Positions 4,713 to 62,677 are shown, numbered from the stretch's first letter. The stretch is 64,000 bases of DNA from a virus (IMGVR_UViG_3300042673_001035:1-64000), one strand, 5' to 3'. Notes: generated by a model not told the origin, from the letters alone. Numbers and translations: made by a program.

Positions 4713-5471
4713 TTAAAGCTTTCTTGTTAGTAATGCTAAACCAGTACTTGTAACTTTTTTATCAAACATACGGAAATTTTTTAAATTTACCAAATTCCAA
4801 TCCTTATTTTTTTCTAATTCTTTAATAAATTTTGTTGGCCCATCAAATGGAACAAAATCTTCCTTTGAGTTTTCAGTTACTACAAAAGTCTTATGATAGA
4901 GTTCATCGGTATCATGTATAGTTATAATTGCATTTTCAGACATTATTGTAGAATATAATTCAAAATCTTTTTTAACTCCTTCGTATGAATGGTCTCCGTC
5001 AATGTGTAAATAGTCAATTTTAATATCTTGTCTTACAAAATAATCGTAATAAGCGTTTTCCGATGTTTGTAAAATAACCTGAGGATTGAAATGTTTTCTT
5101 AAAAATGAATTTTCATCTGACCAATCTACAAATCCACCAACTCCATTTACAGCATCTACAATTATAGTAGTACCTATGTCACCCCATTCTGGAGAATTGT
5201 TTCCTTCAAATATTCCTTGTTCCCAAAGGTCACATCTAGCTTGTGTCATTAAACGTGGAATAAAACCACCTCCAGAACCAATACAGACACAAACTTTGGC
5301 ACGATTAAACATTATAAGAGAATAAATCATAAGTCCGTCTCCCAAATGTAAATCAGTTGCACCATGTGACCAACGATATTTAACAGGGTCTAATATCGTA
5401 TTACCATTTTCATCAATTATATGATTATTAGATAAGTAATCTTTTATTAGTGTTTTGTTTAGTAATTGCAT
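4713..5471 (-). CDS. Class I SAM-dependent methyltransferase (Methyltransf_24-like)
   Basis: CIGSGGG motif I, IDYLHIDGDHSYEGVKKDF, IHDT. Confidence 0.85.
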   Translation of the reverse strand: MQLLNKTLIKDYLSNNHIIDENGNTILDPVKYRWSHGATDLHLGDGLMIYSLIMFNRAKVCVCIGSGGGFIPRLMTQARCDLWEQGIFEGNNSPEWGDIGTTIIVDAVNGVGGFVDWSDENSFLRKHFNPQVILQTSENAYYDYFVRQDIKIDYLHIDGDHSYEGVKKDFELYSTIMSENAIITIHDTDELYHKTFVVTENSKEDFVPFDGPTKFIKELEKNKDWNLVNLKNFRMFDKKVTSTGLALLTRKL

Positions 5472-6336
5472 TTATTTCATCTTTTATTTTAGGCCACAAA
5501 AATTCATCAAAAAATCTCATATGTTGTTCTCCAGATGGATGCCAACGGCCACCTGTTAACATTTCATTTTTATTCAAAAACCATTCTATAATACCACCAC
5601 CAAATCCTCTGATATCCACATCATCTGTGAATAAAAATTTAGTAAAATCTATCTTATCTATTAATGCATTTATAGTATTTAATTCAAGCCAAGATTGTTC
5701 ATATTTTTCTAATTTTTCAAAAATACCTTTATTTGTTTTTAAATTTGCATAATTACCTATTTGTTTTAAATCAACATTTTTTTGTAAGGCCTTTAGTTTT
5801 TCAACACTAGTATCCATATCAAATAAATTACCAATAGTAATCATTTTATATGGTATATTTCTTTCTTCTAAATATTTTTGGGTGTGATATATGTTTTCTA
5901 AAGTTTCCAAAACAGCACCATATAGTGAATAATATTTTTCATAAAAATCTTTTGCAAAACCAAAAACATCGGTTCCGTTATTCATATAATTTATCTTATT
6001 TATCCTTTCAGGAAACATATCCATAAAAGGGAAATTTTTTGATTTATCTTCGGTTACGAAAATAGGATAATCCCATCTGTCTATTGTAGACCATTGGATT
6101 ATAGCATAATCTGGTTTTTGAACATTATATGAATCGTTTAAATACCAAAAAGTTTTTCTTCGTATTGCAATATTTGAAGTACCACCAGCTGATACGTTTC
6201 TTACAACATTATATTGAAAACTATCGATAGGTAATCCATGTTTAAATGGTTTTAATCCATTTTTATAAAACCCAGCAACCCATGCACCATCAACGTCAGA
6301 TGGTGTTGAAAAAGAGCACCCATTTACTAAAATCAT
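5428..6336 (-). CDS. SGNH/GDSL-like protein
   Basis: NGCSFS block I, NVSAGGTSN block II, IIQWS, C-terminal WHP. Confidence 0.6.
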   Translation of the reverse strand: MILVNGCSFSTPSDVDGAWVAGFYKNGLKPFKHGLPIDSFQYNVVRNVSAGGTSNIAIRRKTFWYLNDSYNVQKPDYAIIQWSTIDRWDYPIFVTEDKSKNFPFMDMFPERINKINYMNNGTDVFGFAKDFYEKYYSLYGAVLETLENIYHTQKYLEERNIPYKMITIGNLFDMDTSVEKLKALQKNVDLKQIGNYANLKTNKGIFEKLEKYEQSWLELNTINALIDKIDFTKFLFTDDVDIRGFGGGIIEWFLNKNEMLTGGRWHPSGEQHMRFFDEFLWPKIKDEINAITKQNTNKRLLI

Positions 6337-7706
6337 ATTAATTTATTTTTTTTGTTTTTTAGAAGTAAAACATTTACATCATTTTTTTTGTTTTTTAGAA
6401 GTAAAACATTTACATCATTCATTATCTTACAATAATGATTAAATAATTTTTCTTTATTTTGTTTAATTATTTTATATTTTTCAATATATAATTTTTTTAA
6501 TTTATTTGTGTTTAATTTTTTTAAGGATTTTATTATCATATCTATTTGTTCAAATTCATCTTTTTCTTCAATACCATTTAATTCAAATTCGTCTAAAAAT
6601 AAATCAATACCAATTTTTTTATATTCTTCATATACTTTTTTAGAACCATATATCATAAAAAACTTTTCGGCAAATACCGGTTTTAATGATTTTTCAGTAA
6701 AAAATCCAAATTTTAAATTAAATATTGCATGAGTTTCACCAACCACATCTATATAAGAATTATTATATTCTTCATTTAAAAAATAATTTCTTAAATGATT
6801 GAATAAAAAATCATGGTCATCTTTTGTCACATTTATTTTATCTATAATTGTTAAAAATTTTTCATAATAATCTTTGTTAAAATATGCTTTATGATTATTG
6901 TTGTGTCTTTGTGTACCATCGGTATATATTTTATCCTCTTTAATTGCAACACCATATTCATCAATAAATCTTTCATTTACATTATTTTCTCCAATATGTA
7001 AAACACCATTTTTGTCCGCATCTAATAAAAATTTAATTCTATGGTATCTTGGTTTTAAACAAGTATGTGAATAAACTTTTGACCTATGTAATTTATTATT
7101 TATATTAAATTTTGAAAATATTGTTTTAAAATCGACATGATATTCTAAAAATGAATATACCATATTTGGATATAAAACTCTCATCATTTGTCCTTCTGCT
7201 AACAAATGAAATAATGAATAAAAAGAATCATAGTAAAAATTTTTCTTATCTTTAAATAATTCATAATCTGATATTTTTATATGTTTGAACTTAAAATCGT
7301 ATAAAAAATATTCTTCCTCATCTTCATAATTTACAGCTTCCAATATTGCAAAATTAAAAAATACTTCTACATTTCTTTCAATATATATTTTTTCTAATTT
7401 CTCAAAATCATTTTTATTATTTTTTAATAATGGGTAGTATAATTCATACCACAATTTTCTATCACATATTATAGTTAAATCATCTGGTGGATTTACATAA
7501 TATGAATCCATATCAATCACATTTTTTGTATTTGATATTTTTAAAAATATATTATCCAAATAATGATTTATATCAATTATATCTTCTTTATATTTTATTT
7601 TCAAAGTATGATGACCTCTATGAATATACTCCGATTCCAATAATTCAGCCTCAGGGAATAAACAATTTAATTCAAAACTATTACACAATATATTTAAATA
7701 CTTCAT
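6333..7706 (-). CDS. Putative GT-B-like glycosyltransferase (TEK motif)
   Basis: C-terminal half has KPRYHR and DVVGET...FFTEKSLKP...FMIYG, resembling GT10-type nucleotide-sugar domains. Confidence 0.45.
   Translation of the reverse strand: MKYLNILCNSFELNCLFPEAELLESEYIHRGHHTLKIKYKEDIIDINHYLDNIFLKISNTKNVIDMDSYYVNPPDDLTIICDRKLWYELYYPLLKNNKNDFEKLEKIYIERNVEVFFNFAILEAVNYEDEEEYFLYDFKFKHIKISDYELFKDKKNFYYDSFYSLFHLLAEGQMMRVLYPNMVYSFLEYHVDFKTIFSKFNINNKLHRSKVYSHTCLKPRYHRIKFLLDADKNGVLHIGENNVNERFIDEYGVAIKEDKIYTDGTQRHNNNHKAYFNKDYYEKFLTIIDKINVTKDDHDFLFNHLRNYFLNEEYNNSYIDVVGETHAIFNLKFGFFTEKSLKPVFAEKFFMIYGSKKVYEEYKKIGIDLFLDEFELNGIEEKDEFEQIDMIIKSLKKLNTNKLKKLYIEKYKIIKQNKEKLFNHYCKIMNDVNVLLLKNKKNDVNVLLLKNKKNKLI
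6345..6419. repeat. Exact 36-bp tandem duplication in frame (NDVNVLLLKNKK x2)
   Basis: 6345-6380 is identical to 6381-6416. Confidence 0.95.
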
Positions 7707-8677
7707 ATTATTTTTTTTATTTTCTTAATCCAATTTTGTTTATTCGTATATTTTGTTAGTCCTTTTCTTAATTTACAAAATTCTAAATTTACTTTTTCAA
7801 ATCCATCTTCTTGTATTTCTAAATATCTTTGATGAAACTCTCCTTTACTATTTGCTCTATATTTGTAATCAATATGTTTCATCCAATCGGTATGTATGAT
7901 TGGAACTTTACCATTATCTACTGCATCAAAAATTGCATATCCAAATGGTTCTTTTATATAACATCCATGAAATATTTGAAAATTACCTTCGAAAAATTTG
8001 TTATGAAATGTATAATCAAATTCCATAAACCTATGATAGTCCGAATTAGTTTTTGAACCTTCTAACATTCTTTTATAATCATACTTGTTTGAAAATATAA
8101 TTGATGGAATGTAATCTAAATAATGTGCATTCTTTCGTGTTTCACATCTTGCAGCGTAACCAATTTTATTAGTTATTATTCCTGTAAATGGTTTATTTTG
8201 TTTCCATTCATAATAATTTGTAATCGTTTTTGTTTTTGGATATTCATTATGTATTGTATCTTTTTCATAACCTATCCAAACTATATTGTCGGAATTATCT
8301 AATATCTCTTTCTGCCAATCCCAATCCACCTTTGTCATTATATTTTCATAATCGGAATTCAATCCTAACATATCAGGAATAAAAGCATGGACAAATGTAA
8401 GATAAGTTTTATGTAAATAATTTTTGATGATAGGATTTGGTTTGTAAGAGTGGTGCAAGAAAATAATCTTATCACATTCTTTTAATATCTTATCAACTTC
8501 TTTTTCATTTTCGTAAGTATAAATTGCACCAAATTCTTTTATCAAAGGCCTACCATCAATTATAATTTTATAATCTTCTTTTACTAATGGTAAAATATTT
8601 TCTATAAAGTTATTACACCATAAATCGGCCCCACCTATAACATTTTTTCCATAACCTGTTGTAATAAATACTATCAT
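7703..8677 (-). CDS. GT4-like (GT-B) glycosyltransferase
   Basis: N-terminal GGADLW loop; EPFGYAIFDAVDNGKVPI motif. Confidence 0.75.
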   Translation of the reverse strand: MIVFITTGYGKNVIGGADLWCNNFIENILPLVKEDYKIIIDGRPLIKEFGAIYTYENEKEVDKILKECDKIIFLHHSYKPNPIIKNYLHKTYLTFVHAFIPDMLGLNSDYENIMTKVDWDWQKEILDNSDNIVWIGYEKDTIHNEYPKTKTITNYYEWKQNKPFTGIITNKIGYAARCETRKNAHYLDYIPSIIFSNKYDYKRMLEGSKTNSDYHRFMEFDYTFHNKFFEGNFQIFHGCYIKEPFGYAIFDAVDNGKVPIIHTDWMKHIDYKYRANSKGEFHQRYLEIQEDGFEKVNLEFCKLRKGLTKYTNKQNWIKKIKKII

Positions 8678-11600
8678 ATACTACCACTTATTTGTGCTTC
8701 TAATTTTTCTACTTTTTCTGTTAATTCTTGTATTGCTTTAATTGCAATAGCATGAAATGATGTATAATCTAAATGTTTAAAATCATCATATTTGTAACCC
8801 TTTTTTTCATATATCAATTCGGGCATTATTTGTTGTATATCATCTGCTATAAACCCATATCCTTTTTCAAATTCAAAATTACCAGTTATATGTTGTAACC
8901 AATCATAACTAACTGGATTCAATTTTTTAATAGTTTCTATTCCGTTTAAAATAGTTTTTATATTAGTTTTTGCTCTTATATCTGATGCTGTAACTGAACC
9001 CGCTGCTACTGTTCCTGTCACAGAAATGTTACCAGCAAATACACCAACATTTCCAGCACCAGCTGCATCTCCTAATGCTACATAACTACCTTCTGCAGAA
9101 CCAATTTGTACACCATTTGTTCCAAACTCGGCTCTAGATGCAACCGCTAATAGTGTTGCATTTGCAGTTCTTGCCTCCCATCCAAATGCAATTACATACA
9201 AACTAGCGTTAGAAGTTAATGGAGTGGTTCCATTTGGATTTATTCTAGCTTGAACAACTGTCCCTAAGTAAACTTGTATCCAATAAACTTTACCAGATAC
9301 AGCCGTTCCAATAGATGGTATTGTTACTGTTCCTCCTCCAAACCCAGGTAAATCAACATTACCAAACGGAGAAGTAAAATTGTTCGAAAATTCTAAATTA
9401 GCAACTGTAACATATCCACTTGCAACCGTGGTTCCTACTGAATTTGTTTCTCTAACTACATAAAATATTGATGCATCATATCCATATTGACAACTTGCTC
9501 CGGTTCCCATATTATGACATTGTGCTAATCCTAAGCTTGTTACGGCTGGATATGGTATAACTAATGCTAAATTATTACCATCTACACCAGAGGGGGTTGT
9601 TACAAATGCTTCTACTGTATTTCCTCCGGTTGTTGTCAATGCAGTGAGTGGCCCATACTGAGGTGAGTCATTTCCTTCATTAGATTGGAATTGTGTGCCT
9701 GCACCTGCAACAGTTATGGATACATTTGATGTAGAACCAATATTTACATTACCATTTTTTATTCTTGTTTTAACTATACCACCACTTTTGAAATCAATTC
9801 TATTATTTGCATTATCTATATCAACATTTGTATTAAAAATTGAAGAACTATTAATTGACCACCCACCGATTTTAGCATTTAGACCGGTTAAATCACCAAC
9901 TGTAATCTTATCCGCAGTAACCACACCTGCAGCAATTTTACCAGCAGTAATTGCATTTGCTGCAATTGTTGTTGAAGTTACGGCATCTGCTGCAATTTTA
10001 CCAGCAATAACAGCATCAGCTGCTATTTTGCCTGATGTAACTGCCAATGCATCTAACTTTCCACTAGTTACTGCTAAATCTGCCAATTCTGCGTTTGTTA
10101 CCGAACTTTTTGTGGCCAGACCTCCTAAACCAGTAACATCGGTAGTTGCCGATACACTACTTTTTAATGCCAAAGAACCCAAACCAGTAACATCCGTAGT
10201 TGCCGATACACTACTTTTTAATGCCAAAGAACCCAAACCACTAACTACTGAGTTTGGTACCGTACTACCTACACTTAAATTGCCTTTAATAGTAAGTGTT
10301 GAGCCGTCCCATAACAATGCGTTTCCATTATTACTACCTGTTAAATAAAATAAACCAGTATTATCCATATAGGTTTTCCAGGCCGAACCATTATAAAATC
10401 CCATAATAGTGTTTCCTAAATATAAACCAGAAGTTGTACCAGGAGTTGGCGTTTTTGTAATTCTACCTAATGCATTTGTAAATACTTTATCATCCACTGC
10501 CGATGCTGCATTTGACCCTGATATAACCGCATTTGCTGCTGCATTTGACCCTGATGTAACTGCATTTGTAGCGGCAGTTGAAACATTTGTTGTAGTTGCA
10601 GCATTACCACCCGCTTCAATATTAATTTGTCCAGTAACTGTTAATGTACTATTACCATCCCAAGTTAATTTATTTCCTAATGAAAATTTACCCGTACTAT
10701 CCATATAAACCGTTGTATTGGAATTATTATATGAGCCAGAATCACTTACACCACCAATGAATATTTTTCTTGGGTTTTGTCTTGCATCCAAATAAATAGA
10801 TGGTGTAGTTCCTACTTTGAATAATTCACTAATATATCCTTGTTGTCCTCCTATTGTTGGTGAATATATAAATGTATCACCTATAAATGAACCACTAAAT
10901 TGACCATTTGCTAATTGTTGAACTTTTGATAACGATGATGATAAAATAAATACATTTGAAGAACTTACCGATGAACTCAATGAACTCAACGATGCAGATA
11001 CAGAACCACTAAGTGAACCAACGGAACTACTAGCAGATGAACTATAAACCGTCATTGTTCCACTAATAGAAGATGATACTCTATTTAAATCCGCTAATGA
11101 AGAAGATGCCGATGAACTAATTAATAAAATAGTTCCACCAATATTGGTATTTCCTCCATTAAATGTAGCACTTTGTGTAACAGCTACTGGAACATAATTA
11201 TTATTTACATCATAAAATTCAAATTTGAAATTATAAGTTTCATTACCAATTACCGTTGGCATTGTTGTAACAAAAGAAACTTCATCCGGTGAAAATGCAG
11301 TATCTTCTGATAATCGTAAACTAATATTTCCTAAATGCCACTCTCCCTGTGATTGTGAAAAATACAAAGATGCGGATGGATAATCTCTATCTATTCTAAA
11401 TGGTATTACTGTATCTAATAAATTTTTAGTAGGTGTGGTACCGACTAATGTTGCAATACTACTTGAAATATAAAAAGATACGGAACCTGATACTCCTGGT
11501 GATATCTCTTGAATGGATGATGTTAATTGAGTTAAATAAATTCCTAAATTACTTGAAGTAGATGATGAATAAAATGCATCCAAATTTAATTCGTAAGTAT

Positions 11601-12525
11601 TTGAACTTTTTATATCTAAAGATTGTGTATATGTGAAATATCCACTACCTGTTAATCTAACACCACTTTCAACTCTACTAGATGTAATGAATGTATTTAA
11701 CGAACCTGTATTCCAATTATTTTTAAGTGTTTCCGATGTTAATATTCCAGTCTGTCCTACTACACTTCCTGACAAACCATATGATGTTAATAATTCTTTT
11801 GACTCAACTAATATGTCTTGTATTAAATCAAAATCGGAAATGTCACCTTCGGAAGTTCTAAATACTTTTACTCTTTTAACATCACCTGCAAATGTTTCTA
11901 ATTTTGAAAGTTTAATATTAGCAAAAGATTGATTTATTCCTGAATCTACTTTTGACCCACTTTCAATTCTATATATTGGACTTAATATTTCAGTAATAGT
12001 TGCAACAGGTCTTTGGTAAAATCTAATCTTTGTAGTATTAGCTAATGCCGGATTTACATTTATAGTTTTTGTCCACTTAACATTGTATTTATTTTCCCAA
12101 TCTAAAGGAACGGGAAGTGTAATACCATTTGTATCTTGATACTCACTTAACTCACCTAATATAGTAAGTGTACATGGGCCGTATGCTGTATCCGGATAAA
12201 CATAGACTGCAACAACTTTTGAAACACCCTCATAATATTCCGTAATTATTGATGTATTAGTAGAACCACTTATATTGGTATTAATCATACCCTCACCTGG
12301 TTCGTGATAAATTATATTACCAGCTGAATCTTTTAATTCAATTTGTATTTTAGTATCAGGAACTAAAAAGTCAGAACCTGCAATTAGGAATGCATTCTTT
12401 CCACCCGTAAATGTGCCAGGTAATTCTGTTATTTTAAAATACTTACTATCGGATTGAGTATCATCTACTAATACTGCAAACTTTTCTAAATTCTTTGGAA
12501 ATAGTGTTTTCTTTATAACAGCCAT
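8674..12525 (-). CDS. Tail fibre/spike protein with C-terminal peptidase S74 intramolecular chaperone
   Basis: SDIRAKTNI...LNPVSYDW...YGFIADDI...LDY...AIQEL; Ser-rich shaft; 10-aa AVTxGKIAAD repeats. Confidence 0.85.
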   Translation of the reverse strand: MAVIKKTLFPKNLEKFAVLVDDTQSDSKYFKITELPGTFTGGKNAFLIAGSDFLVPDTKIQIELKDSAGNIIYHEPGEGMINTNISGSTNTSIITEYYEGVSKVVAVYVYPDTAYGPCTLTILGELSEYQDTNGITLPVPLDWENKYNVKWTKTINVNPALANTTKIRFYQRPVATITEILSPIYRIESGSKVDSGINQSFANIKLSKLETFAGDVKRVKVFRTSEGDISDFDLIQDILVESKELLTSYGLSGSVVGQTGILTSETLKNNWNTGSLNTFITSSRVESGVRLTGSGYFTYTQSLDIKSSNTYELNLDAFYSSSTSSNLGIYLTQLTSSIQEISPGVSGSVSFYISSSIATLVGTTPTKNLLDTVIPFRIDRDYPSASLYFSQSQGEWHLGNISLRLSEDTAFSPDEVSFVTTMPTVIGNETYNFKFEFYDVNNNYVPVAVTQSATFNGGNTNIGGTILLISSSASSSLADLNRVSSSISGTMTVYSSSASSSVGSLSGSVSASLSSLSSSVSSSNVFILSSSLSKVQQLANGQFSGSFIGDTFIYSPTIGGQQGYISELFKVGTTPSIYLDARQNPRKIFIGGVSDSGSYNNSNTTVYMDSTGKFSLGNKLTWDGNSTLTVTGQINIEAGGNAATTTNVSTAATNAVTSGSNAAANAVISGSNAASAVDDKVFTNALGRITKTPTPGTTSGLYLGNTIMGFYNGSAWKTYMDNTGLFYLTGSNNGNALLWDGSTLTIKGNLSVGSTVPNSVVSGLGSLALKSSVSATTDVTGLGSLALKSSVSATTDVTGLGGLATKSSVTNAELADLAVTSGKLDALAVTSGKIAADAVIAGKIAADAVTSTTIAANAITAGKIAAGVVTADKITVGDLTGLNAKIGGWSINSSSIFNTNVDIDNANNRIDFKSGGIVKTRIKNGNVNIGSTSNVSITVAGAGTQFQSNEGNDSPQYGPLTALTTTGGNTVEAFVTTPSGVDGNNLALVIPYPAVTSLGLAQCHNMGTGASCQYGYDASIFYVVRETNSVGTTVASGYVTVANLEFSNNFTSPFGNVDLPGFGGGTVTIPSIGTAVSGKVYWIQVYLGTVVQARINPNGTTPLTSNASLYVIAFGWEARTANATLLAVASRAEFGTNGVQIGSAEGSYVALGDAAGAGNVGVFAGNISVTGTVAAGSVTASDIRAKTNIKTILNGIETIKKLNPVSYDWLQHITGNFEFEKGYGFIADDIQQIMPELIYEKKGYKYDDFKHLDYTSFHAIAIKAIQELTEKVEKLEAQISGSI
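10127..10240. repeat. 54-bp tandem repeat inside tail fibre (GLGSLALKSSVSATTDVT)
   Basis: Units start at 10127 and 10181 and differ by one base. Confidence 0.9.
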
Positions 12526-12627: not shown

Positions 12628-12813
12628 ATGAAGTACGCAATGTTACAAATCAAAAAAGAAACCCATGAACTTCTCAAAGAATATTGTGAAGAACACGGGT
12701 TTAAAATGGGTAGTCTAGTTGAAAATCTAATTAAGAAACACATTGGTGTCTCAAAACCACAATCAAGTGTGTTGAAGGCTGATAAGGTAGTTCTTAGAAA
12801 TCAATCTTACTAA
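12628..12813 (+). CDS. Small ribbon-helix-helix-like DNA-binding protein
   Basis: MKYAMLQIKKETHELLKEYCEEHGFKMGSLVENLIKKH fits a beta-alpha-alpha pattern; the only credible plus-strand gene. Confidence 0.65.
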   Translation: MKYAMLQIKKETHELLKEYCEEHGFKMGSLVENLIKKHIGVSKPQSSVLKADKVVLRNQSY

Positions 12814-15800
12814 ATCCATTCTCTTTTTTTATTTCAATTAATCCGTCTACGATATCTCTCATTTGTTCTAAGTGAGAAATCATCCATATAAAATCAAATT
12901 GTGTTTTAAGATATTGCATCATCATAAATAAAGATGATAAATTGTCTGCATCCAATGTTCCAAATCCTTCGTCTACTACTAAAAAATTCGGACGAGGTAA
13001 GTTACATACATTAATAAGTGCAACTCTAATAGCAAGGCCACTCACAAACTTCTCCATACCACTACACATCTCCAAAGGCCATTCTTGGTCTTCGTAAACA
13101 ATCTTTGCATTGATTGACTTGCCGTCCATTTCCATTGTAACACCAAAGTCTACAACTTGTGCAAGAATGTTATTGATTTCATTTTCAATTACCGGAAGTG
13201 CTTTACTAATCAACTCATATGGAATACCATCTCTCTTTACAGCATCTAAATAATAGGTGTATAATCGGTTCTTTTCCTCTAAGTCCTTAACATCACTCAT
13301 CTTTTGTTTTATACCCTCTATATAGGTCTGTAATGATGAAATAGAACCATTTGTAGTTGCTATTTGTTTACTGATATCTTTAATGTCCGATTCAATTTTC
13401 TTTTTCTCTACTTCTAATTCTTTGATTTGTTTTTCTAACTCTTTATTACTTTGAATTGTTTCTTCGTTCTCAAAATATCTTTCAATATCTTCTTCTACTT
13501 TGTCCAATTGGGTTTCTAATAGTTCTTCTCTTGTAACCAATCCACTAAATTCTAAATAATAATTTTTATGAGTTGCTTTGGCTTTTTCTAATTTATTTTT
13601 TAAGTCGTTCCACTCATTATATTGTTCTTCTATACCTTCCCATGTATCCAAAGTTTGTTGGATACCTGTACAATCAACCATTGCTTCTCTAACTATTTCT
13701 TTTAATTGAGGCAATGATTCCTTTACTCTCATTGCATCTTTTACAAAGGTATTATCACAACAAAACTTACAATTGGGGTCATATTCATGTTTATCCAAAT
13801 GTGAAATCTTTTCTTCGGCTGAGGATAAATGTCTTTTTGCAATATCATAAACTCTTGTAGCTTCAATTAACGCATTTTGTTCTCTTTGATAATTAGAATA
13901 TACAACTTCTATATCGATACCATTAAATTGTTGTTTAGTTGTAATTGTATCCGTTAACTCAACCATTTTTTCGGTAATAGTAGTAATATTTGTGGTTTTA
14001 TTCTGCATAATATCTTTATTTGTATCAATATCACCTTTTAATTTTTCTCTACGTTCATTCAAATCATCAATATTCAAATTACCATCAATCGGAGTAAGGT
14101 TTCTACTCAAATCTAATATAACACTATCTAATCCACCCTTATCACCATTCAATCTATTCAATTCTTTCTCAAACTCTTTCAACTCACCCTTATTATCTTT
14201 CAACTCATTTGCTTTATCAGCTAGTTCGGTTGTAAAGTCGGTTTTCTTAAAATTTTTGATAAGAACCGAAACTTCTTTGATATCTTCCGTAGCAGTTTCG
14301 TATAATTTATCAAATACATTTAATCCCATAAATTGAGCAAGTAAATCTTTTCTCTCACTTTGTGACTTATCAATGAATATAGAGTTATTACCTTGCAACG
14401 ATAAAGAAGTCAATACAAAATCTTCGTACTTACCAACATATTGTTCAATTACTTGATTGGTATCTCTTCTCTCTGTTCCATTTAAAGATATCTTCTCACC
14501 ACCATCATCATACCAAAAGTTTACATCTACCTTTACATTTTTACCTTTGTTAATTGTTTTAGCAGTTCTTTCAATGTAATAATCTACTCCATTTACTTGA
14601 AAATGTAAATAACATCTAAAATCAGTCTTACGATTGTTTAAGATATTAGCTGCTTTGAATGCTCTACTACTTTTATCATAAAGACAAAATGAAATAGCAT
14701 CAAAGATAGATGACTTACCTTGTGCGTTTGGTGCAAATAGTCCCATCAATCCATTTAACTTACTAAAATCAATTTTGTTATCTTCACCATATGAAAACAT
14801 ATTAGAAAACTCAAATCTAATCGGTTTCCATTGTATGTTTCTTAAAGTATCCTCGTGTACAATTCTACTATTTACGTCTCTGTTAATATTTTCCAATTCT
14901 GCTAAATCTTTCTTATCAACAAATGGCATCATTCTTTCTACATACTCATTGATTAAAGAGTTTTGATAATTGATATCGGAAATATCTTCAAAATCTAATT
15001 TATTTTGTCTATCTCCTGTTTTCTTCTTTGATAATGAGTCCGTTCTAATAATTGTAAAGTCCTCAACACCATATTTCATTTTGATTTCTGCAATTACCTT
15101 TTTAGTATCGGCAGTATCGGTGTTTGACAATCTTACTCTTAAACGAGGATGCTTTGGCATATCATTTACAACTGGAACTTTACCATTGTCGATATCCATT
15201 GTATAATAACCATAATCATTTTGAATATCAATTTCTTCGTAAGTCATAGTGTCCAAATCCCATGCTAAAAAACCATGTCTACCCAATGTTTCACCAAAGT
15301 TTTGTTGAACCAATGAACCTGCATAAACTACCTTACAACCTTTTGGACTTATCATTTCTTGACGTTTATGAATATCACCTAAAAGTGCTAAATCAAAACC
15401 ATCAAATATATCCGTTGTAAAATGCCTACTACTCACCACATAACCTATATCAGTTTGTGAATTATCAACAGGCCCGTGGAATAATGCAATCTTTTTATTA
15501 CCTGTTAGTTTATCAGCACTAATCCAATTGTCTTTGTTATCTAAAATTGAAAATACTGAAAAATCAATACCACCAATTGAAAACACTTGTGTATCTCTTA
15601 AATAATAAAAGTCTTTTAATTCTAATGCATCAACCAATGGAGTAAGAACATCCATTCTATCCATATTGTTCATATTACAATCGTGATTTCCGGTAATAAG
15701 AATTGTAGGACAAGTTTTAGCACACTCTTTGAATAACCAACTTATTTCGTTGACTAATTCTGGTGACATTTCTAATTTAGCGTGTGCAATATCACCTGCT

Positions 15801-15937
15801 AAATATATAATTGCGTCTTTGGTTCCTCTTTTACGGATTTCCTCAAACATCAATTCAAATACCTGTCTATACTCTTTGTGTCTTTTCACATTACGGATAT
15901 GAACATCCGCTATATGATAAATTTTCTTTAAACTCAT
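12794..15937 (-). CDS. Fused Mre11/SbcD nuclease - Rad50/SbcC ATPase (T4 gp47-gp46-like)
   Basis: ADVH, GD, GNHD, GDIH phosphoesterase motifs; Walker A APNAQGKSS; coiled coil with CKFC hook; CSGME signature; VVDEGFG Walker B; ISH. Confidence 0.92.
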   Translation of the reverse strand: MSLKKIYHIADVHIRNVKRHKEYRQVFELMFEEIRKRGTKDAIIYLAGDIAHAKLEMSPELVNEISWLFKECAKTCPTILITGNHDCNMNNMDRMDVLTPLVDALELKDFYYLRDTQVFSIGGIDFSVFSILDNKDNWISADKLTGNKKIALFHGPVDNSQTDIGYVVSSRHFTTDIFDGFDLALLGDIHKRQEMISPKGCKVVYAGSLVQQNFGETLGRHGFLAWDLDTMTYEEIDIQNDYGYYTMDIDNGKVPVVNDMPKHPRLRVRLSNTDTADTKKVIAEIKMKYGVEDFTIIRTDSLSKKKTGDRQNKLDFEDISDINYQNSLINEYVERMMPFVDKKDLAELENINRDVNSRIVHEDTLRNIQWKPIRFEFSNMFSYGEDNKIDFSKLNGLMGLFAPNAQGKSSIFDAISFCLYDKSSRAFKAANILNNRKTDFRCYLHFQVNGVDYYIERTAKTINKGKNVKVDVNFWYDDGGEKISLNGTERRDTNQVIEQYVGKYEDFVLTSLSLQGNNSIFIDKSQSERKDLLAQFMGLNVFDKLYETATEDIKEVSVLIKNFKKTDFTTELADKANELKDNKGELKEFEKELNRLNGDKGGLDSVILDLSRNLTPIDGNLNIDDLNERREKLKGDIDTNKDIMQNKTTNITTITEKMVELTDTITTKQQFNGIDIEVVYSNYQREQNALIEATRVYDIAKRHLSSAEEKISHLDKHEYDPNCKFCCDNTFVKDAMRVKESLPQLKEIVREAMVDCTGIQQTLDTWEGIEEQYNEWNDLKNKLEKAKATHKNYYLEFSGLVTREELLETQLDKVEEDIERYFENEETIQSNKELEKQIKELEVEKKKIESDIKDISKQIATTNGSISSLQTYIEGIKQKMSDVKDLEEKNRLYTYYLDAVKRDGIPYELISKALPVIENEINNILAQVVDFGVTMEMDGKSINAKIVYEDQEWPLEMCSGMEKFVSGLAIRVALINVCNLPRPNFLVVDEGFGTLDADNLSSLFMMMQYLKTQFDFIWMISHLEQMRDIVDGLIEIKKENGFSKIDF

Positions 15938-16875: not shown

Positions 16876-16879
16876 GACT

Positions 16880-16912
16880 TAAATATACGATAAATATTTG
16901 ATATTACCAAAT
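16880..16912 (-). promoter_or_regulatory. Bacteroidota-type sigma-A-like promoter (primase)
   Basis: ATTTGGTAATATCAAATATTTATCGTATATTTA, a few nt upstream of the GTG start. Confidence 0.65.
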
Positions 16913-16915
16913 AAT

Positions 16916-47986: not shown

Positions 47987-48007
47987 ATTTTATGTTTCTA
48001 TTTGTCT

Positions 48008-48015
48008 ATAAATAT
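48008..48015 (-). promoter_or_regulatory. ATATTTAT putative late promoter for the ATP-grasp/Hint gene
   Basis: Same octamer precedes structural genes. Confidence 0.5.
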
Positions 48016-48032
48016 AAATTAATTAAATAAAA

Positions 48033-49832
48033 TTATATTATTTTTTTTCCATATTGAGGTTTTGGAATATCGTTTAAGTCTTCAAATAAGATAATAGGTT
48101 CTTCAATGGTTTCAATCTCATTTGAGATTATAGTGTATGATTGTGATCCTGTTTCTTGTTTTTCTTTTAATTCTAAATATAATCCTCTATTATAGATTGA
48201 ATATGGTATTCCTATTCTTTTAAATGTCTCCTCAGCTTGTTCAATTCTTCTTAACCTATCCATTGGTGTATTCCACTTTGTTGTGAAATTAACACCATTC
48301 TCATATTCTAAATATTGTTTCTCCACATCTCTCCACTTTACTAATAGAGTTTGATGTAATAAAAATACGGAACAGGTTACTATTTCTGCCATACAATCTC
48401 TAAATTCCTCTACAAAGTCTAAAGTTTTTTGAAAATCTTCATCGGTTTCGTTTAGATATCCAACAATGATTTGCATACCAAACAACAATGGATATTCAAA
48501 TTCAGTTCCCTTATTTTCTTCATTTACCTTTCTTACATTTTCAAAAATTTCTCTCACACCTTGAACATCGGTGTATTTTTTCATATGTTTAAGAACTGGT
48601 TCGGAATAAGATTCGAATCCTGTAATAAACTTTGTTAGTCCTGCTCTACGATATAATCTTATAGTTTCTATATCTCTCATTTGAGATTGTAGTCTAACAT
48701 TACCACCGATATTAATATCTAATCCTCTTTCGATAATTTTTTCACACAATTCTTTTAACCACTTTGGATTACCATTGATAATTGAATCGTGACAAAAGAA
48801 ATACTTCTTTCCTTTTGCAACCCATCCTTCTAATTCCTCTAACACATTTTCAACGGTTCTATATCGGTATTCAGGTATATAATCCGGTACTGAACAAAAC
48901 GAACAACGATAAGGACAACCTCTACTCATTGTAATAGGTTTAGTGTCCTGATAAACTGACTTATAATAAAAATTATCTTCTAAAGAACTATAATCCGGAA
49001 TAGGTAATGCATCCATTGGAATATTTGCTCTCATTTTATTGTGGATAAAAATACCATTTAATTGCCAAATTAATCCAGGTATAGACATTAAGGACTCCTC
49101 ACTCCAATCTGACTTAAGTATTTCTACAAATGTCATCTCACCATCACCTCTACTGATTGCATCGATGAAAGTATATTCGTTTGTTTTATAATTTGAATTG
49201 GGTAATCTACCAAAGTCTAACACTTCAACACCATTACCACCAATTAAAATTTTAACCTCTGGATATTTTTCTTTTACTAATTTTGCAATTGCAAGTGTTG
49301 CATCTATATTACCATCGATAATACTAAATCCTAAAAATTTAGGCTTTGCTTTCTCTAAATATCTACCAACGAATCCGTATGCAATATCATATGTTTCCTG
49401 AAAATTATATAATAGATGAAACTGACTTTGTTTGGAGTATGTATTAAATAAATTGAAAAACTCACCTTGCTTATCCGGTGGATTTAAAAAGAAATAGTCA
49501 ATTACTGGGTCAATGATTGCAACCCTTAATTCGGGTTCATATTTGTCTATCCAAGACTTTAAACCAACTATGCCGGAATAATAACCTGATTCATTGATAT
49601 TAGGAACTTGTAATAACAAACAATCTTGTTCTTCTATATCTTGAAAATGGAATTTATGTTCTATCTCCAATCCTTTGCCTTTCTCTGCAAAAACAGTTTG
49701 ACGCATATATTGTAGTAAATCGACTTTGATGTCAAATACTTCAACACCACTTTTCATTTGGTCATCTACTCTATTCTCAACTTTTTGAATTTGACTTTCA
49801 ATATCAGGACTAATGATTTCGTCAATTTGCAT
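48033..49832 (-). CDS. Cobalamin-binding (class B) radical SAM enzyme
   Basis: ILIGG, RGDGE, LPIPDY, SRGCPYRCSFC, GFESYS, IIVGYLNET. Confidence 0.9.
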   Translation of the reverse strand: MQIDEIISPDIESQIQKVENRVDDQMKSGVEVFDIKVDLLQYMRQTVFAEKGKGLEIEHKFHFQDIEEQDCLLLQVPNINESGYYSGIVGLKSWIDKYEPELRVAIIDPVIDYFFLNPPDKQGEFFNLFNTYSKQSQFHLLYNFQETYDIAYGFVGRYLEKAKPKFLGFSIIDGNIDATLAIAKLVKEKYPEVKILIGGNGVEVLDFGRLPNSNYKTNEYTFIDAISRGDGEMTFVEILKSDWSEESLMSIPGLIWQLNGIFIHNKMRANIPMDALPIPDYSSLEDNFYYKSVYQDTKPITMSRGCPYRCSFCSVPDYIPEYRYRTVENVLEELEGWVAKGKKYFFCHDSIINGNPKWLKELCEKIIERGLDINIGGNVRLQSQMRDIETIRLYRRAGLTKFITGFESYSEPVLKHMKKYTDVQGVREIFENVRKVNEENKGTEFEYPLLFGMQIIVGYLNETDEDFQKTLDFVEEFRDCMAEIVTCSVFLLHQTLLVKWRDVEKQYLEYENGVNFTTKWNTPMDRLRRIEQAEETFKRIGIPYSIYNRGLYLELKEKQETGSQSYTIISNEIETIEEPIILFEDLNDIPKPQYGKKII

Positions 49833-49849
49833 GAATATAATAATTTAAT

Positions 49850-49882
49850 TAAATATACAAATAATTATTGAATTTTCCAAAT
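49850..49882 (-). promoter_or_regulatory. Bacteroidota-type sigma-A-like promoter
   Basis: ATTTGGAAAATTCAATAATTATTTGTATATTTA. Confidence 0.6.
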
Positions 49883-49910
49883 AAATCAATTTTATTCAAA
49901 AAAATAAAAT

Positions 49911-50558
49911 CTATATTAATGTTGAACCATTGTTATTAATATAATTAATCATTATATCAGCCAATACTTTACAGCCAAATTCGGATAGGTGGTGGTCATT
50001 TATTACGCCTTTTGTTTCATTTATTATTTCCATCTTACCTTTATAATATGACCAATATAAATTATTTACTATTTTACTTTTTTCAAATTCGGAAAAAGCT
50101 GACCAATAAACTATTTTGTTATTTTTAAATGTATAATTTAACAAATCCATCCATCCCATTATTTCTTTTAAAAATAATTCGGAATCTCTATTTACTAAAA
50201 TTTCTTGTAAAGTCCTCTCACTTATAAGTGGTAAATCTGGTAAATGATTAAGAATTATTGTATGGAAAAATTTGTTAGACATATCTGCTAGTCTAAATCT
50301 TGTTATTGATGACCATCCTATTATTATATAATCACCATCTTTGATGTTATTGATTTGTTTTATAATGGAATCTAATATCGTATAATTATCACTACCACCT
50401 TTAGCACAATTTCGAAATGGTAATTCTAAATTATCCGCAAGAATTTCTGGCCAAAATTTGGGTTCATACCCTTTCCATTTGATATATTCATCTGCCCACC
50501 GATAAGATTTATTATATCCCTCAGTATTAGAATCACCAAAAAACCATATCTTATTCAT
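49911..50558 (-). CDS. SGNH/GDSL-like protein
   Basis: FGDSNT, NCAKGGSDN, IIGWS..RF, DHHLSEFG. Confidence 0.65.
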   Translation of the reverse strand: MNKIWFFGDSNTEGYNKSYRWADEYIKWKGYEPKFWPEILADNLELPFRNCAKGGSDNYTILDSIIKQINNIKDGDYIIIGWSSITRFRLADMSNKFFHTIILNHLPDLPLISERTLQEILVNRDSELFLKEIMGWMDLLNYTFKNNKIVYWSAFSEFEKSKIVNNLYWSYYKGKMEIINETKGVINDHHLSEFGCKVLADIMINYINNNGSTLI

Positions 50559-50584
50559 ATTTTATAATATTGTTTAAATTAATT

Positions 50585-50628
50585 GGGGTGGGGGTTGGGG
50601 GAGAAAGTCGTTTTTTAAGAAAATTTTT
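50585..50628 (+). repeat. G-tract element copy 1
   Basis: GGGGTGGGGGTTGGGGGAGAAAGTCGTTTTTTAAGAAAATTTTT; inverted homolog at 60105-60151. Confidence 0.75.
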
Positions 50629-50651
50629 AGAACATACCTTCTATTGATAGT

Positions 50652-51353
50652 CTATATCAATTCTCTTTTTATACTTATTATACTTTTTAATTTCATTTTA
50701 AGATTCAATATATCATCTTCCAATTTATCAATTTCATTTTGTTTTTCCATTAATAAGTCGTATGATGTCAGTCCTCTTTCATTATTTAAAATTCGTTTTA
50801 ACCATAACTCATCTTTGTCACATAAAATATATAATTCATCCAATTTGTCTTTTGATATCATAGATAAAATTTCAACTTTTGATTTAAAATGTTTCATTTT
50901 ATGGGAATCATATAATTCGGGTTTATATTCAATTTTATAATCAAAAAATTCCGACAATTTGTCTAGATGTATCATTTTGAATCCAAAAATATTCCATATA
51001 CGATACAGATTTTTATATAAGTTTGGAGACCAATGTTCGGATTTATCATCAATCATATTTTCAATAATTACATCCAAATTCCAATCTTGTTTACGATTAT
51101 TGGAGGTGTGTATTTTGCCCTCTATATTTCCCCACACATAATCGGTTTGAATCGCCGATATGATATGTTCACACGGATTTCTATATGTTACAATTGAATT
51201 TTGTGTAATATCGATTGGTGGATTAGGTGAATTTGGGTCTATATCCACTTCCGATTGGTTTATCCAATTAGAATTTCTTACAAATCGAATACCACACTTT
51301 GGAATACAAATAATTGGTTCTCTATCTTTATATTCATGTTTTGATAAAATCAT
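50652..51353 (-). CDS. Degenerate sulfotransferase-like protein
   Basis: CIPKCGIR, YRNPCEHIISA, EHWSP. Confidence 0.5.
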   Translation of the reverse strand: MILSKHEYKDREPIICIPKCGIRFVRNSNWINQSEVDIDPNSPNPPIDITQNSIVTYRNPCEHIISAIQTDYVWGNIEGKIHTSNNRKQDWNLDVIIENMIDDKSEHWSPNLYKNLYRIWNIFGFKMIHLDKLSEFFDYKIEYKPELYDSHKMKHFKSKVEILSMISKDKLDELYILCDKDELWLKRILNNERGLTSYDLLMEKQNEIDKLEDDILNLKMKLKSIISIKRELI

Positions 51354-51363: not shown

Positions 51364-51519
51364 TTATTTCTTCATTAGGTCTCTTTTAAGACGCTTTAGA
51401 TACCATATAGGAAAATATATCACCCAATACATAGAAACGACAAATACACCACCCATAATGACAATGGACATGGTTATAAGTCTTAAGATTAGTAATATAG
51501 TATTAATGAGAGATACCAT
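51364..51519 (-). CDS. 51-aa membrane peptide (not in ORF track)
   Basis: MVSLINTILLILRLITMSIVIMGGVFVVSMYWVIYFPIWYLKRLKRDLMKK. Confidence 0.5.
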   Translation of the reverse strand: MVSLINTILLILRLITMSIVIMGGVFVVSMYWVIYFPIWYLKRLKRDLMKK

Positions 51520-51778
51520 TACCATAAATTGATGTCCAGATGCCGACTATACCAACCAAACACCAAAAGGCATTCAATATAATGTATGCACGGTTATCTC
51601 TTTCCCATGCAGCATAAGTTAAAATAACGGCATCGATAGTATTCCATATCCACATCCAAAGAAAAGGAGTATCAGGTCCCATAATAGAAAGAGTACCAAA
51701 TGCAATGATTCTCATCACTACTCCGATATTCTCCATCCATTTAATTGTGGTTTCACTTAATAACTTTAGTTTTGACAT
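51503..51778 (-). CDS. Small 3-TM membrane protein
   Basis: Hydrophobic helices; LNAFW motif. Confidence 0.65.
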   Translation of the reverse strand: MSKLKLLSETTIKWMENIGVVMRIIAFGTLSIMGPDTPFLWMWIWNTIDAVILTYAAWERDNRAYIILNAFWCLVGIVGIWTSIYGNGISH

Positions 51779-55120: not shown

Positions 55121-55230
55121 GTTATTTTTTTGCTTCCCATTAAGTTATTAATTGTTCAAACTCCATTGAGGCGGGTCGCTTTTACCTCAGCTTCGTTTGT
55201 ATCTTTATTGTGTTAATGTCTTTGTTATAT

Positions 55231-55263
55231 GTAATATACGACAAATATTTGACATTACCAAAT
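55231..55263 (-). promoter_or_regulatory. Bacteroidota-type sigma-A-like promoter
   Basis: ATTTGGTAATGTCAAATATTTGTCGTATATTAC. Confidence 0.65.
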
Positions 55264-61214: not shown

Positions 61215-61757
61215 TTATATTAATTTTCTTTTTGCTTTGTTTCTATTCCTCAATCTATTTGTGTTATCCAATAGGTGTTCATACCTTGTATTCATTATAC
61301 CTATGTAATCCTTTATTCTTTGTATGTCCTCTTTTGTATTATATATCCTTTCGTATGTAACTTGTAAGTCAATTTCTTTTATTCCATTAATTAGTTCGTT
61401 ACGATTATAAATCACATTTTCAAATTGTTTTATATATATTTCGTTTTCTATTATCCATTCATCACTTACTTCATATCCATTACGCCATTCCTTTCGTTGT
61501 GATGCTCTGGTTTGAGATATTGCACATTCCCTTGCATCCGTTCTAGTCAATCCAATTATCTTGTCCCAATTACTGAAATCAATATCTTTTATATTTTCTA
61601 TTTCATTTATCAAATATTTCACTACGATATTATCACCTTCAATAGATTCATTTGTTCGTATTGGTTCGTGTATCATTTTATATCCCAACTCCAATGCTAA
61701 CCATTCATTCAATTGATACCCACCACTTCTCGCCAATGCTATAATTAATATTCTCAT
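61215..61757 (-). CDS. Sulfotransferase/P-loop-like protein
   Basis: IIALARSGG, HEP, LTR...AIS, VTYE. Confidence 0.7.
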   Translation of the reverse strand: MRILIIALARSGGYQLNEWLALELGYKMIHEPIRTNESIEGDNIVVKYLINEIENIKDIDFSNWDKIIGLTRTDARECAISQTRASQRKEWRNGYEVSDEWIIENEIYIKQFENVIYNRNELINGIKEIDLQVTYERIYNTKEDIQRIKDYIGIMNTRYEHLLDNTNRLRNRNKAKRKLI

Positions 61758-61766
61758 ACTATTATT

Positions 61767-62018
61767 TTATTTGTCCATTTCGTTTTCAAAAGCTTTCATC
61801 GCTCTTTTTACATTATCCATTTCGGGTATATCTAACTTTTCACCCAATGAAACGAATCCTATTGTTAATATTGCAAATACAATACCAATACTAAATTCAA
61901 CCGCTCGTTCACTATACAATGTGTCATTTTTTGCAGTCACTCCGTTATGTGTGGTTATTTGCAACCCTAATAGTGTTTCTCTTTTACTTAAAAAGCTAAA
62001 TCCTAATTCTATTTTCAT
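61767..62018 (-). CDS. Hypothetical protein
   Basis: 83 aa with one hydrophobic segment. Confidence 0.55.
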   Translation of the reverse strand: MKIELGFSFLSKRETLLGLQITTHNGVTAKNDTLYSERAVEFSIGIVFAILTIGFVSLGEKLDIPEMDNVKRAMKAFENEMDK

Positions 62019-62029
62019 ATTATATTGTT

Positions 62030-62677
62030 TTATATTATTTCTTTGTTTTTAATTCTGTTATATTTTGCTTCTAATACTTGGGATAATTTTAATTGTCCTT
62101 GTTCACTAAAATGTTTATTATCTATTTCACCATTGGTTTCATTTTTGATTATTTCAAACTCATTTAAACAATCTGCTTCTAAAGTATTTTTAAATGCTGT
62201 CCAATGTATCACATAGTTATTCTTTAATGTATGGTTTATTAAATTTATCCAATTATTAACCTCACTGTCATATTTTTTATTACTTCTATTTGCTAATAGT
62301 TTCTTTATACTATCCCTATCCATATATTCCGCATCCCTTAACATTCCATTATCATTGGGTAAATAGTTTATCCACTCTCCATTCTTATCGGTTAATCTAA
62401 ATCTAGCACTATTTGACCAACCAAATATAATTAAGTCATCTTTTTTAATTTCTTTTACAACTTTGCAAAAAGATTCAAATATAGAATAGTTATCCCAACC
62501 ACCTACACCATAATTCATTAACTTCATACCCAATCGTTCCGATAATAGTTCACCATATACTTTTGGTACATATCCTTTCCAATTTATATAATGGTGTCTC
62601 CAATGAATTACTTTACAATCTTTATTTGGTAAAAAACTTTCAGTAAAACTATCACCAAATGTCCACAATTTTAACAT
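62030..62677 (-). CDS. SGNH/GDSL-like protein (paralog of 49911-50558)
   Basis: FGDSFT, YINWKGYVPK, FGWS..RFRL, ETNGEIDNKHFSEQG. Confidence 0.65.
   Translation of the reverse strand: MLKLWTFGDSFTESFLPNKDCKVIHWRHHYINWKGYVPKVYGELLSERLGMKLMNYGVGGWDNYSIFESFCKVVKEIKKDDLIIFGWSNSARFRLTDKNGEWINYLPNDNGMLRDAEYMDRDSIKKLLANRSNKKYDSEVNNWINLINHTLKNNYVIHWTAFKNTLEADCLNEFEIIKNETNGEIDNKHFSEQGQLKLSQVLEAKYNRIKNKEII

Follow-up and report, generated by a model that had tools for sequence, protein, structure and literature searches.

The locus and its shared C-terminal ending

We analysed the first 64 kb (64,000 nucleotides, referred to here as the window) of the virus record IMGVR_UViG_3300042673_001035, which comes from an uncultured large phage and is a single record of 116,680 bases with a completeness of 52% by CheckV. 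The GC content of the window is 25-33%, and its minus strand holds nearly all of the genes. PHROGs matches include a tail fibre and a baseplate wedge protein, as well as a carbamoyltransferase and a nuclease in which SbcD-like and SbcC-like parts are fused, and the nearest deposited phage is Microcystis phage Mel-JY01, with 42% amino-acid identity across that nuclease. Our subject is a short C-terminal ending, [LI][LIM]-COOH, which we call the tag, together with a 502-amino-acid (aa) protein, which we call the hub, that is encoded in an island of tagged genes and lacks the tag itself. An initial annotation of this DNA had listed 16 unrelated open reading frames (ORFs) with such an ending, and all 16 are present on the minus strand, with the coordinates and endings given below.

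ORFs were called greedily on the minus strand, with ATG starts and a minimum length of 50 aa, which gave 77 ORFs in the window and 158 genome-wide. Related IMG/VR loci were fetched via a radical SAM protein, the hub and the 457-aa protein (6333-7706), and further loci were fetched via hub homologues about 25% identical and via whole-record searches. The enlarged sample comprises 1003 unique proteins in 425 BLAST families, 70 of which contain at least one strict tail. Tail statistics were taken from the 20 families with at least four members (321 unique proteins), and the association with the hub was measured over 47 hub loci. Endings were also scored with a matrix of the last six residues, trained on the tails of relatives only, with the present genome left out. 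The tagged genes and the features among them are as follows, with 2OG standing for 2-oxoglutarate.

5428-6336, minus strand: tagged ORF, 302 aa, ending NKRLLI; no family match; matrix score 6.0; the orthologues in related loci L022 and L023 retain NKRLLI
6333-7706, minus strand: tagged ORF, 457 aa, ending KKNKLI; no family match; top matrix score, 12.0; orthologues retain KKNKLI
7703-8677, minus strand: tagged ORF, 324 aa, ending KIKKII; no Pfam or PHROGs match; directly after the tail-fibre gene (8674-12525); orthologues end EIIEII
40811-41458, minus strand: borderline ORF at the island flank, 215 aa, ending DNII, without Lys; no Pfam match
41520-42002, minus strand: tagged 2OG-Fe(II) oxygenase, 160 aa, ending KLSSLI; PF13640 (3e-9), match ending at residue 150 of 160
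42006-42629, minus strand: tagged ORF, 207 aa, ending KTNKII; no family match
42626-43126, minus strand: tagged 2OG-Fe(II) oxygenase, 166 aa, ending ETNKLI; PF13640 (1e-7), match ending at residue 152 of 166; family in 38 of 47 hub loci
43123-44181, minus strand: tagged radical SAM protein, 352 aa, ending NLSKLL; PF04055 (7e-9) and Fer4_12; family in 24 hub loci
44188-44775, minus strand: tagged 2OG-Fe(II) oxygenase, 195 aa, ending NKKTLM; phrog_81 (5e-15); family in 40 of 47 hub loci
44772-45386, minus strand: tagged 2OG-Fe(II) oxygenase, 204 aa, ending SKNSLI; PF13661 (2e-19), match ending at residue 190 of 204
45390-46076, minus strand: tagged ORF, possibly a sulfotransferase, 228 aa, ending NKINLI; no Pfam or PHROGs match; family in 38 hub loci
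46089-46358, minus strand: tagged small Cys-rich zinc-ribbon-like protein, 89 aa, ending ESKRLL; after the hub and a micro-ORF; family in 41 of 47 hub loci
46379-46456, minus strand: untagged 25-aa micro-ORF in the 119-nt gap from the hub to the small Cys-rich protein
46478-47986, minus strand: untagged hub, 502 aa, ending CLYL; predicted ATP-grasp ligase, Hint/bacterial intein-like (BIL) domain and Cys-rich peptide
48033-49832, minus strand: tagged radical SAM protein, 599 aa, ending YGKKII; PF04055 (2e-18); B12-binding-like N-terminal part (PF02310, below the cut-off)
49911-50558, minus strand: tagged GDSL/SGNH-like protein, 215 aa, ending NGSTLI; PF00657 at 22.3 bits against a cut-off of 23.6; same BLAST family as 62030-62677
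50652-51353, minus strand: tagged ORF, 233 aa, ending IKRELI; no family match
61215-61757, minus strand: tagged ORF, 180 aa, ending AKRKLI; 14 kb from the hub; no Pfam or PHROGs match
62030-62677, minus strand: tagged GDSL/SGNH protein, 215 aa, ending KNKEII; PF00657 at 27.1 bits, above the cut-off
101005-101430, outside the window: tagged ORF, 141 aa, ending YKNTLI; matrix rank 6 of 152

The ending is far more frequent than the background would give. Genome-wide, 21 of 158 ORFs terminate in [LI][LIM], compared with an internal dipeptide frequency of 2.8% (binomial P 5e-9), and the internal frequency inside the 16 proteins themselves (3.85%) predicts 0.6 such termini among the 16. Twelve of the 13 consecutive ORFs from 40811 to 51353 have the ending, the sole exception being the hub. 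In the window the ending is found in 17 of the 77 ORFs, namely the 16 and ORF 40811-41458, which had been singled out earlier as the only other protein ending this way; that count stands for the window, and the HD label given to the protein has no Pfam support. This ORF reaches matrix rank 18 with a score of 4.2, where about one terminus is expected by chance, and its orthologues end NII, NIL or NVI. Ranks 1-17 are taken by the 16 ORFs and ORF 101005-101430, with a chance expectation there of 0.68 termini, and the other three [LI][LIM] ends (DELEII, GLEYLL and WKPKLL) score at chance level. Given that a matrix trained on relatives only recovers those ORFs, the earlier list of 16 was exactly the signal. 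With ORF 101005-101430, some 50 kb away from the hub, the tagged loci would number four.

Among the 16, Pfam and PHROGs identify 2OG-Fe(II) oxygenases in four cases, radical SAM proteins in two and GDSL/SGNH proteins in two more (with one score just below the cut-off), and seven have no match. One of these seven, 45390-46076, has Atlas neighbours in viral clusters with Sulfotransfer_1/2, which we treat as a lead only. The oxygenase, radical SAM and SGNH/GDSL labels of the initial annotation were therefore borne out, the sulfotransferase label comes down to that lead, and the GT-B folds proposed for 5428, 6333 and 7703 have no Pfam or PHROGs counterpart. Its description of the proteins as unrelated needs only slight correction, since the two GDSL proteins (49911 and 62030) cluster together and the 16 ORFs form 15 BLAST-level families. 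The small Cys-rich protein (46089-46358) has weak DUF6171 and DZR_2 matches and belongs to phrog_13558, and the family of ORF 61215-61757 occurs in 38 hub loci and is tagged there. Where Pfam or PHROG domain matches reach near the C-terminus, the tail sits 7-17 residues past them; the exception is the 49911 GDSL match, which stops 42 residues before the end. The tagged genes have a mean GC content of 25.3%, compared with 30.7% for the other window ORFs, which fits a fast-turnover island. No nucleotide match to the tagged island was found by megablast among 50,697 deposited phage records, and a pattern scan with the 204-aa oxygenase (44772-45386) also found nothing.

Selection on the tail and its association with the hub

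In the related loci the same island recurs with differing gene content, and nearly every gene in it has the same ending, approximately [KN]-[TSKN]-[LI]-[ILM]-COOH, borne on a variable Lys/Asn-rich extension. Among 105 unique tails, position -4 is K in 42% and N in 21%, position -3 is K, N, T or S in 76%, position -2 is L in 75% and I in 25%, and position -1 is I in 72%, L in 24% and M in 4%. Over the 321 proteins of the tail statistics set, L (221) or I (62) occupies -2 in 88% and I (211), L (61) or M (8) occupies -1 in 87%, with the remaining residues at these positions almost all V, F or M; T, K, N or S is present at -3 in 83% and K or N at -4 in 60%. Near-miss endings in the related loci are LV, ML, VL, LF and FI. 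When orthologues at 30-75% identity are anchored at their C-termini, identity is 16-23% from -10 to -5, except for a Lys-rich peak of 39% at -7, and climbs to 57% at -2 and 49% at -1 in these pairs, which are not independent of each other. Orthologues of the 599-aa radical SAM protein (48033-49832) end KKII, KNLI, IKLI, KTLI, RSLI, RKLI or QQLI. The 204-aa oxygenase retains its tail in 13 of 14 fetched homologues; the most distant homologue (33% identity) ends two residues past a conserved GW, where the protein described here has 15 more residues. The tail is retained even across hub lineages that are just about 25% identical.

We conclude that selection on the tail acts on amino acids and that the tag is a protein-level short linear motif, given that its codons are varied and near genome usage, that nothing is conserved past the stop codon, and that orthologues retain the tail while the linker drifts. 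The codons of the 16 at -2 are TTA (nine), ATA (three), CTT (two), ATT and TTG (one each), and those at -1 are ATA (11) and ATC, ATT, TTA, ATG and CTA (one each). At least two in-class codons are used at -1 in 20 of 20 families and at -2 in 17 of 20. Where two proteins differ in their -2 codon, 903 of 1144 pairs (again not independent) remain within L/I/M, compared with about 46% for single-base neighbours. The initial annotation had pointed to five ATGA overlaps, all three stop codons and varied codons as signs of a protein-level signal and not of the start context of the next gene, and both the observations and the argument hold.

The alternative that the ending arises at the nucleotide or translation level, as a scar of recombination at cassette junctions, as an A/T-rich element serving the gene that follows, or through the nascent peptide or the stop context tuning termination in packed operons, was weighed against the same data. 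TTA-ATA is the commonest spelling (7 of 16), the tagged genes are richer in A/T, as given above, and 5 of the 16 overlap the next start. An observation that speaks against selection on amino acids alone is the over-use of ATA at -1, where Ile is spelled ATA in 70% of cases versus 43% internally. This excess is explained only in part by the ATGA overlaps and by the fact that stop codons are often preceded by A in general; TGA overlaps close a third of the tagged genes, and untagged genes ending in Ile likewise favour ATA (52%). However, Leu codons at -2 track genome usage (TTA 70% versus 60%), and AAA, the commonest codon and one base from ATA, occurs only five times at -1 and twice at -2 among the 321 proteins. 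Nucleotide information is restricted to the coding side, with none 3' of the stop codon, and the stops of the 16 are TAA (nine), TGA (five) and TAG (two). The gap to the next start varies from -44 to 93 nt (-44, -4 five times, 3, 3, 6, 6, 11, 12, 46, 61, 78 and 93 nt). In addition, other tight operons in this genome, including those with ATGA overlaps at 8674 and 15934, are without the tail, and the tag persists at dispersed loci and in lineages with different neighbours. We therefore regard a nucleotide-level origin as very improbable.

The tag travels with the hub. Across the 47 hub loci a strict tail is present in 227 of 357 unique proteins encoded no more than six genes from the hub versus 87 of 498 encoded at a greater distance (odds ratio 8.2, Fisher P 6e-44). 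In all loci fetched via distant hubs or whole records, the hub is flanked on both sides by K-[TSNK]-[LI]-[LIM] endings, and no hub carries the tag. All of the families that follow the hub most closely have it, namely the small Cys-rich protein (41 of 47), two oxygenase families (40 and 38), that of ORF 61215 (38) and the putative sulfotransferase (38); besides the hub, no untagged family occurs in more than 25 of the 47 loci. Untagged genes that do co-occur encode adenosine 5'-phosphosulfate (APS) kinase, carbamoyltransferase, a DUF2061 membrane protein, Hsp20 and peptide deformylase. The untagged APS kinase (PF01583, 9e-16) is found at 2334-2819 of related locus L007 and at 16 further loci, near hub islands, and no member of its family was found in the present record; it would supply 3'-phosphoadenosine 5'-phosphosulfate (PAPS) to the putative sulfotransferases. 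The products of these untagged genes would supply cofactors or act elsewhere, and we infer from this that the tag labels enzymes that must meet a shared macromolecular substrate and spares the cofactor suppliers.

Phages that lack the hub show no such ending in excess. The Mel-JY01 genome has 7 of 229 termini of this kind versus 6.4 expected, and in Synechococcus phage Syn9 the ending is found in none of the 12 genes of the dioxygenase array and in none of the 35 coding sequences in the stretch examined. The contig of L007, a 22%-complete fragment, has no hub match and 1 of 33 ORFs tagged, and its orthologue of the 599-aa radical SAM protein, at 59% identity, ends EKR, without the tail. Iyer et al. 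2010 (PMC2938197) describe a tandem array of ten dioxygenases in Syn9 and cyanophage arrays of many small 2OG-Fe(II) oxygenases from different families, which are thought to modify peptides or metabolites. The island described here resembles that of Syn9 in being a phage island of many such small oxygenases, but the Syn9 array has neither hub nor tag.

The hub protein and the possible reader of the tag

Structural modelling suggests that the N-terminal domain of the hub (residues ~1-280) is a circularly permuted ATP-grasp ligase with a glutathione-synthetase-like fold. The N-terminal 285 residues modelled alone gave a predicted local distance difference test score (pLDDT) of 84.1, and Foldseek placed eukaryotic glutathione synthetases best (5oev, 8.5e-6; 1m0t, 1.5e-5), with LysX/ArgX (E 0.06-0.3) and PurK far behind. 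Circular permutation is known for the glutathione synthetase branch of the ATP-grasp fold, and the E-x-N motif at the extreme N-terminus of the hub fits that arrangement. Residues D9, E22, N24, D98, R106, D116 and R222 do not vary among 22 sequences whose identity goes as low as 22%. Given the invariance of these seven polar residues, which may have catalytic roles, the domain is probably an active ligase; by its model, the hub would carry an ATP-grasp ligase with its predicted catalytic residues intact.

The C-terminal half of the hub is Hint/BIL-like, with BIL2 (6y75) as the best Foldseek match at E 8.7e-9, followed by many inteins. It closes in a nearly invariant H460-N461, and in this clade the equivalent of residue 1 is Lys in a manual alignment, with no Cys/Ser/Thr nucleophile. 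The Hint fold, the C-terminal His-Asn and the lack of an N-terminal Cys/Ser/Thr nucleophile together place the domain with the BIL proteins. The His-Asn is followed by a peptide of 27-47 residues with about six Cys (~40 aa in this hub), and the C-terminus of the hub, unlike the tag, is not conserved. In L038, L047, L050, L053 and other loci these peptides contain many Trp and Tyr residues, and the spacing of their six Cys is fixed, e.g., C-x-C-x5-C-x3-C-x5-C-x2-C; they are otherwise fast-evolving, and the clade of the present phage has a different, longer Cys pattern. An apparent mimic of the tag at the ligase/Hint junction (PKLL) was dropped as a candidate, since it is restricted to this clade (10 of 34 unique hubs).

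The hub family comprises 366 representatives (50% identity) at E <=1e-3 among 1.84 billion cluster representatives. It has no match among the 50,697 deposited phage genomes, and none was found by a pattern-based scan, of limited sensitivity, of 185,579 species genomes for a host or prophage copy. Two full-length hubs occur in only one of 12 related records, the 211-kb record G004; the extra match in record G007 covers the Hint region only. The second, diverged G004 hub lies at 2208-3734 of reversed locus L029 (G004:C1:12000-31000, reverse) and is followed by 89-aa and 206-aa proteins that both end KTLF, whereas the array of the first hub ends LI, LL or II.

We considered that the tag could be a docking or address handle on enzymes that work with the hub, with the ligase domain of the hub as its most likely reader. 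This is the reading we favour, tentatively and at somewhat less than an even chance. The hub is the only universal untagged partner of the tag, its structural relatives act on peptide C-terminal carboxylates, and apart from the tag no peptide C-terminus in the system is conserved, the hub's own end varying freely; moreover, the pattern in G004, a single case, resembles two insulated hub-tag pairs. Glutathione synthetase activates a peptide C-terminal carboxylate. In addition, YgiC and YjfC are peptide-spermidine ligases according to work cited in PMC12568646. The ATP-grasp/Hint protein had been named as a candidate receptor in the initial annotation, and docking to it is what our analysis favours, given its position as the only universal untagged partner. 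The wider interpretation offered there is partly supported, and its view that the ending is borne by small modifying enzymes that are exchanged for one another and encoded in several places agrees with what we find.

Under the docking hypothesis the tag would label the small enzymes and one zinc-ribbon-like protein as hub partners, and a shared partner would hold its free carboxylate and both aliphatic side chains in a single pocket. The Hint domain, which ties the ligase to the Cys-rich peptide, would cut only at its own C-terminus, and docking would bring the single-domain enzymes, in which no recognition domain is seen, to the Cys-rich peptide that the hub tethers. Docking could perhaps extend to ATP-dependent ligation at the tag. 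A version in which the ligase domain itself reads the tag, captures the K-T-L-I carboxyl ends of a dozen interchangeable tailoring enzymes and perhaps ligates them with ATP is possible but doubtful. A folded leader protein with a self-cleaving Hint domain and its own core peptide would amount to leader-peptide recognition in reverse, and the module as a whole resembles a phage pathway for the maturation of a ribosomal peptide. Co-folding of the 502-aa hub with the C-terminal 40 residues of the 204-aa oxygenase, run without controls, gave scores of 0.04 and 0.02 against a mark of 0.32, which we count neither as support for binding nor as evidence against it.

In its proposed role the tag is like known C-terminal address and docking tags, such as peroxisomal targeting signal 1 (PTS1), clamp-binding tails, EEVD and encapsulin cargo peptides, yet it has the defining pattern of none of them. 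PTS1 is -SKL-COOH ([SAC]-[KRH]-[LM]-COOH) and is read by the TPR domain of Pex5. Like PTS1, the tag is a very short C-terminal peptide that would need a free end, sits on many unrelated enzymes and would serve as an address; its final residue is I in 211 of 321 proteins, its -2 residue is L/I and not basic, and its basic residue lies at -4/-3. Its setting, a phage and a bacterial cell, also has no Pex5 and no organelle. Sliding-clamp/PCNA-binding motifs, the EEVD tails that bind TPR domains in Hsp70 and Hsp90, and encapsulin cargo-loading peptides are C-terminal tails that dock on a hub, and in each case, as proposed here, a short terminal peptide on a flexible linker plugs unrelated enzymes into one partner. 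The tag has a different and shorter consensus than these and is without the Gln and aromatic residues of the clamp-binding consensus (QL[SD]LF-like, PIP-like). We identified no reader of the clamp, TPR or encapsulin type; the search for a gp45 N-domain was empty, with its controls silent too, and no TPR search was made. The class I PDZ-ligand pattern ([S/T]-x-hydrophobic-COOH) accounts for fewer than half of the tails, with T/S at -3 in 143 of 321 and K/N in 125 of 321.

In mechanism, the proposed system comes closest to those in which an ATP-grasp ligase recognises the C-terminus of a protein. C-terminus-directed ligases of this fold include RimK acting on ribosomal protein S6, LysX/ArgX acting on the zinc-ribbon carrier LysW, tubulin tyrosine ligase acting on tubulin, glutathione synthetase, and YgiC and YjfC. 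As with LysX and LysW, the hub adjoins a small zinc-ribbon-like protein with a conserved C-terminal tail. Unlike RimK/LysX-type systems, a dozen or more different proteins share one end here, which is aliphatic and not acidic; unlike LysX-type ligases, the hub ligase shares its chain with a Hint domain and a peptide, and its LysX/ArgX matches are weak. In ribosomal peptide pathways, recognition elements (RRE domains) on the enzymes bind the leader of the precursor. The system described here would similarly gather tailoring enzymes (radical SAM proteins, oxygenases and perhaps sulfotransferases) at one precursor, but the precursor would have a 460-residue folded leader (ligase plus Hint) and the enzymes a short peptide. 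No paper describing the tag or the hub design was found in our literature searches.

Several findings weigh against the hub ligase as the reader. The fold match of its N-terminal domain is partial, with a template modelling (TM) score of 0.39 by query length, and sequence profiles of the hub gave no Pfam or PHROGs match and PDB matches at chance level (E 0.47-0.89) or none. Tagged genes also lie 14 kb (61215-62677) and 40 kb (5428-8677) from the hub, so that adjacency is not strict. Variant -LF tails have at least two origins on the hub tree and do not mark one hub clade; the share of variant tags correlates weakly by rank with the length of the hub end branches (rho 0.46, P 0.006, n 33), a correlation that depends on sampling, is uncorrected for relatedness and serves as a lead only. 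The phage records used are fragments, 22-86% complete. The reader may also be a host protein, given that PDZ proteins, used as controls, were detected in 14 of 14 control cell genomes.

Two other readers were weighed. The tag could still be an address or docking label but be read by another phage protein or by a host structure such as a membrane, chaperone or compartment, with the hub only sharing the pathway. We consider this unlikely. Besides the distant tagged genes, it could appeal to the basic stretch and two aliphatic residues, which could suit an anionic membrane, and to small membrane proteins near the islands (DUF2061 at 38357-38566 and a 91-aa ORF at 51503-51778). However, the strict L/I at the last two positions, where F, V, M and W are rare, and the T/S/K/N at -3 suggest a defined pocket rather than lipid partitioning. 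The hub aside, untagged families each occur in at most 25 of the 47 hub loci, and searches with PDZ_2 and PDZ_6 gave no match in five phage records, namely the present one and four relatives (52-86% complete). A degron was raised as an alternative in the initial annotation. In this reading a host protease or unfoldase that reads C-termini (ClpXP-type or tail-specific) would recognise the basic and hydrophobic end and shorten the life of the enzymes, with the hub ligase perhaps masking or unmasking the end; we judge it quite improbable. An aliphatic C-terminus that comes after basic residues is similar to the MuA-type ClpX signal, and non-polar ends are the preferred targets of tail-specific proteases, a likeness that speaks for a degron, as does the presence of PDZ proteins in all 14 control cell genomes. 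Yet the tag occurs only alongside the hub and is absent from hub-less relatives expected to meet similar host proteases; it persists over very distant phage lineages whose hosts probably differ, and there is no obvious reason to destabilise a dozen enzymes of one pathway and no other early proteins.

If docking to the hub is correct, a four-residue label common to at least 70 BLAST-level families in our sample would be a portable phage address code, which would explain how fast-turnover islands keep working as one pathway, and phages could swap enzymes into or out of a peptide pathway by adding four residues. The tag also gives a simple sequence rule with which to find members of the module far from the hub, as at 5428-8677, 61215-62677 and 101005-101430 in this genome, and it may offer a small handle for protein recruitment in synthetic pathways. 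More broadly, our findings point to a widespread phage peptide-maturation system for which we found no description in the literature.

Other elements in the window

Two recurring A/T-rich elements were seen just past stop codons. The one, promoter-like and on the minus strand, reads roughly TTTGGTAAT-N-TCAAA-N-ATTT-N-TCGTATATTA and occurs at about 16876-16915, 38960-38998, 40310-40346, 41480-41519 and 55225-55263, just past several stops; one copy separates the last tagged gene of the island from ORF 40811. The other, a ATATTTATAA-like motif, lies downstream of the stops at 17597, 20765, 25409, 31954 and 48033, ahead of structural genes, and may be a late-promoter element. Finally, SbcD-like and SbcC-like parts (phrog_100 and phrog_77) are joined in one protein of 1047 aa (12794-15937, minus strand), and Mel-JY01 carries the same SbcD/SbcC fusion at 42% identity.

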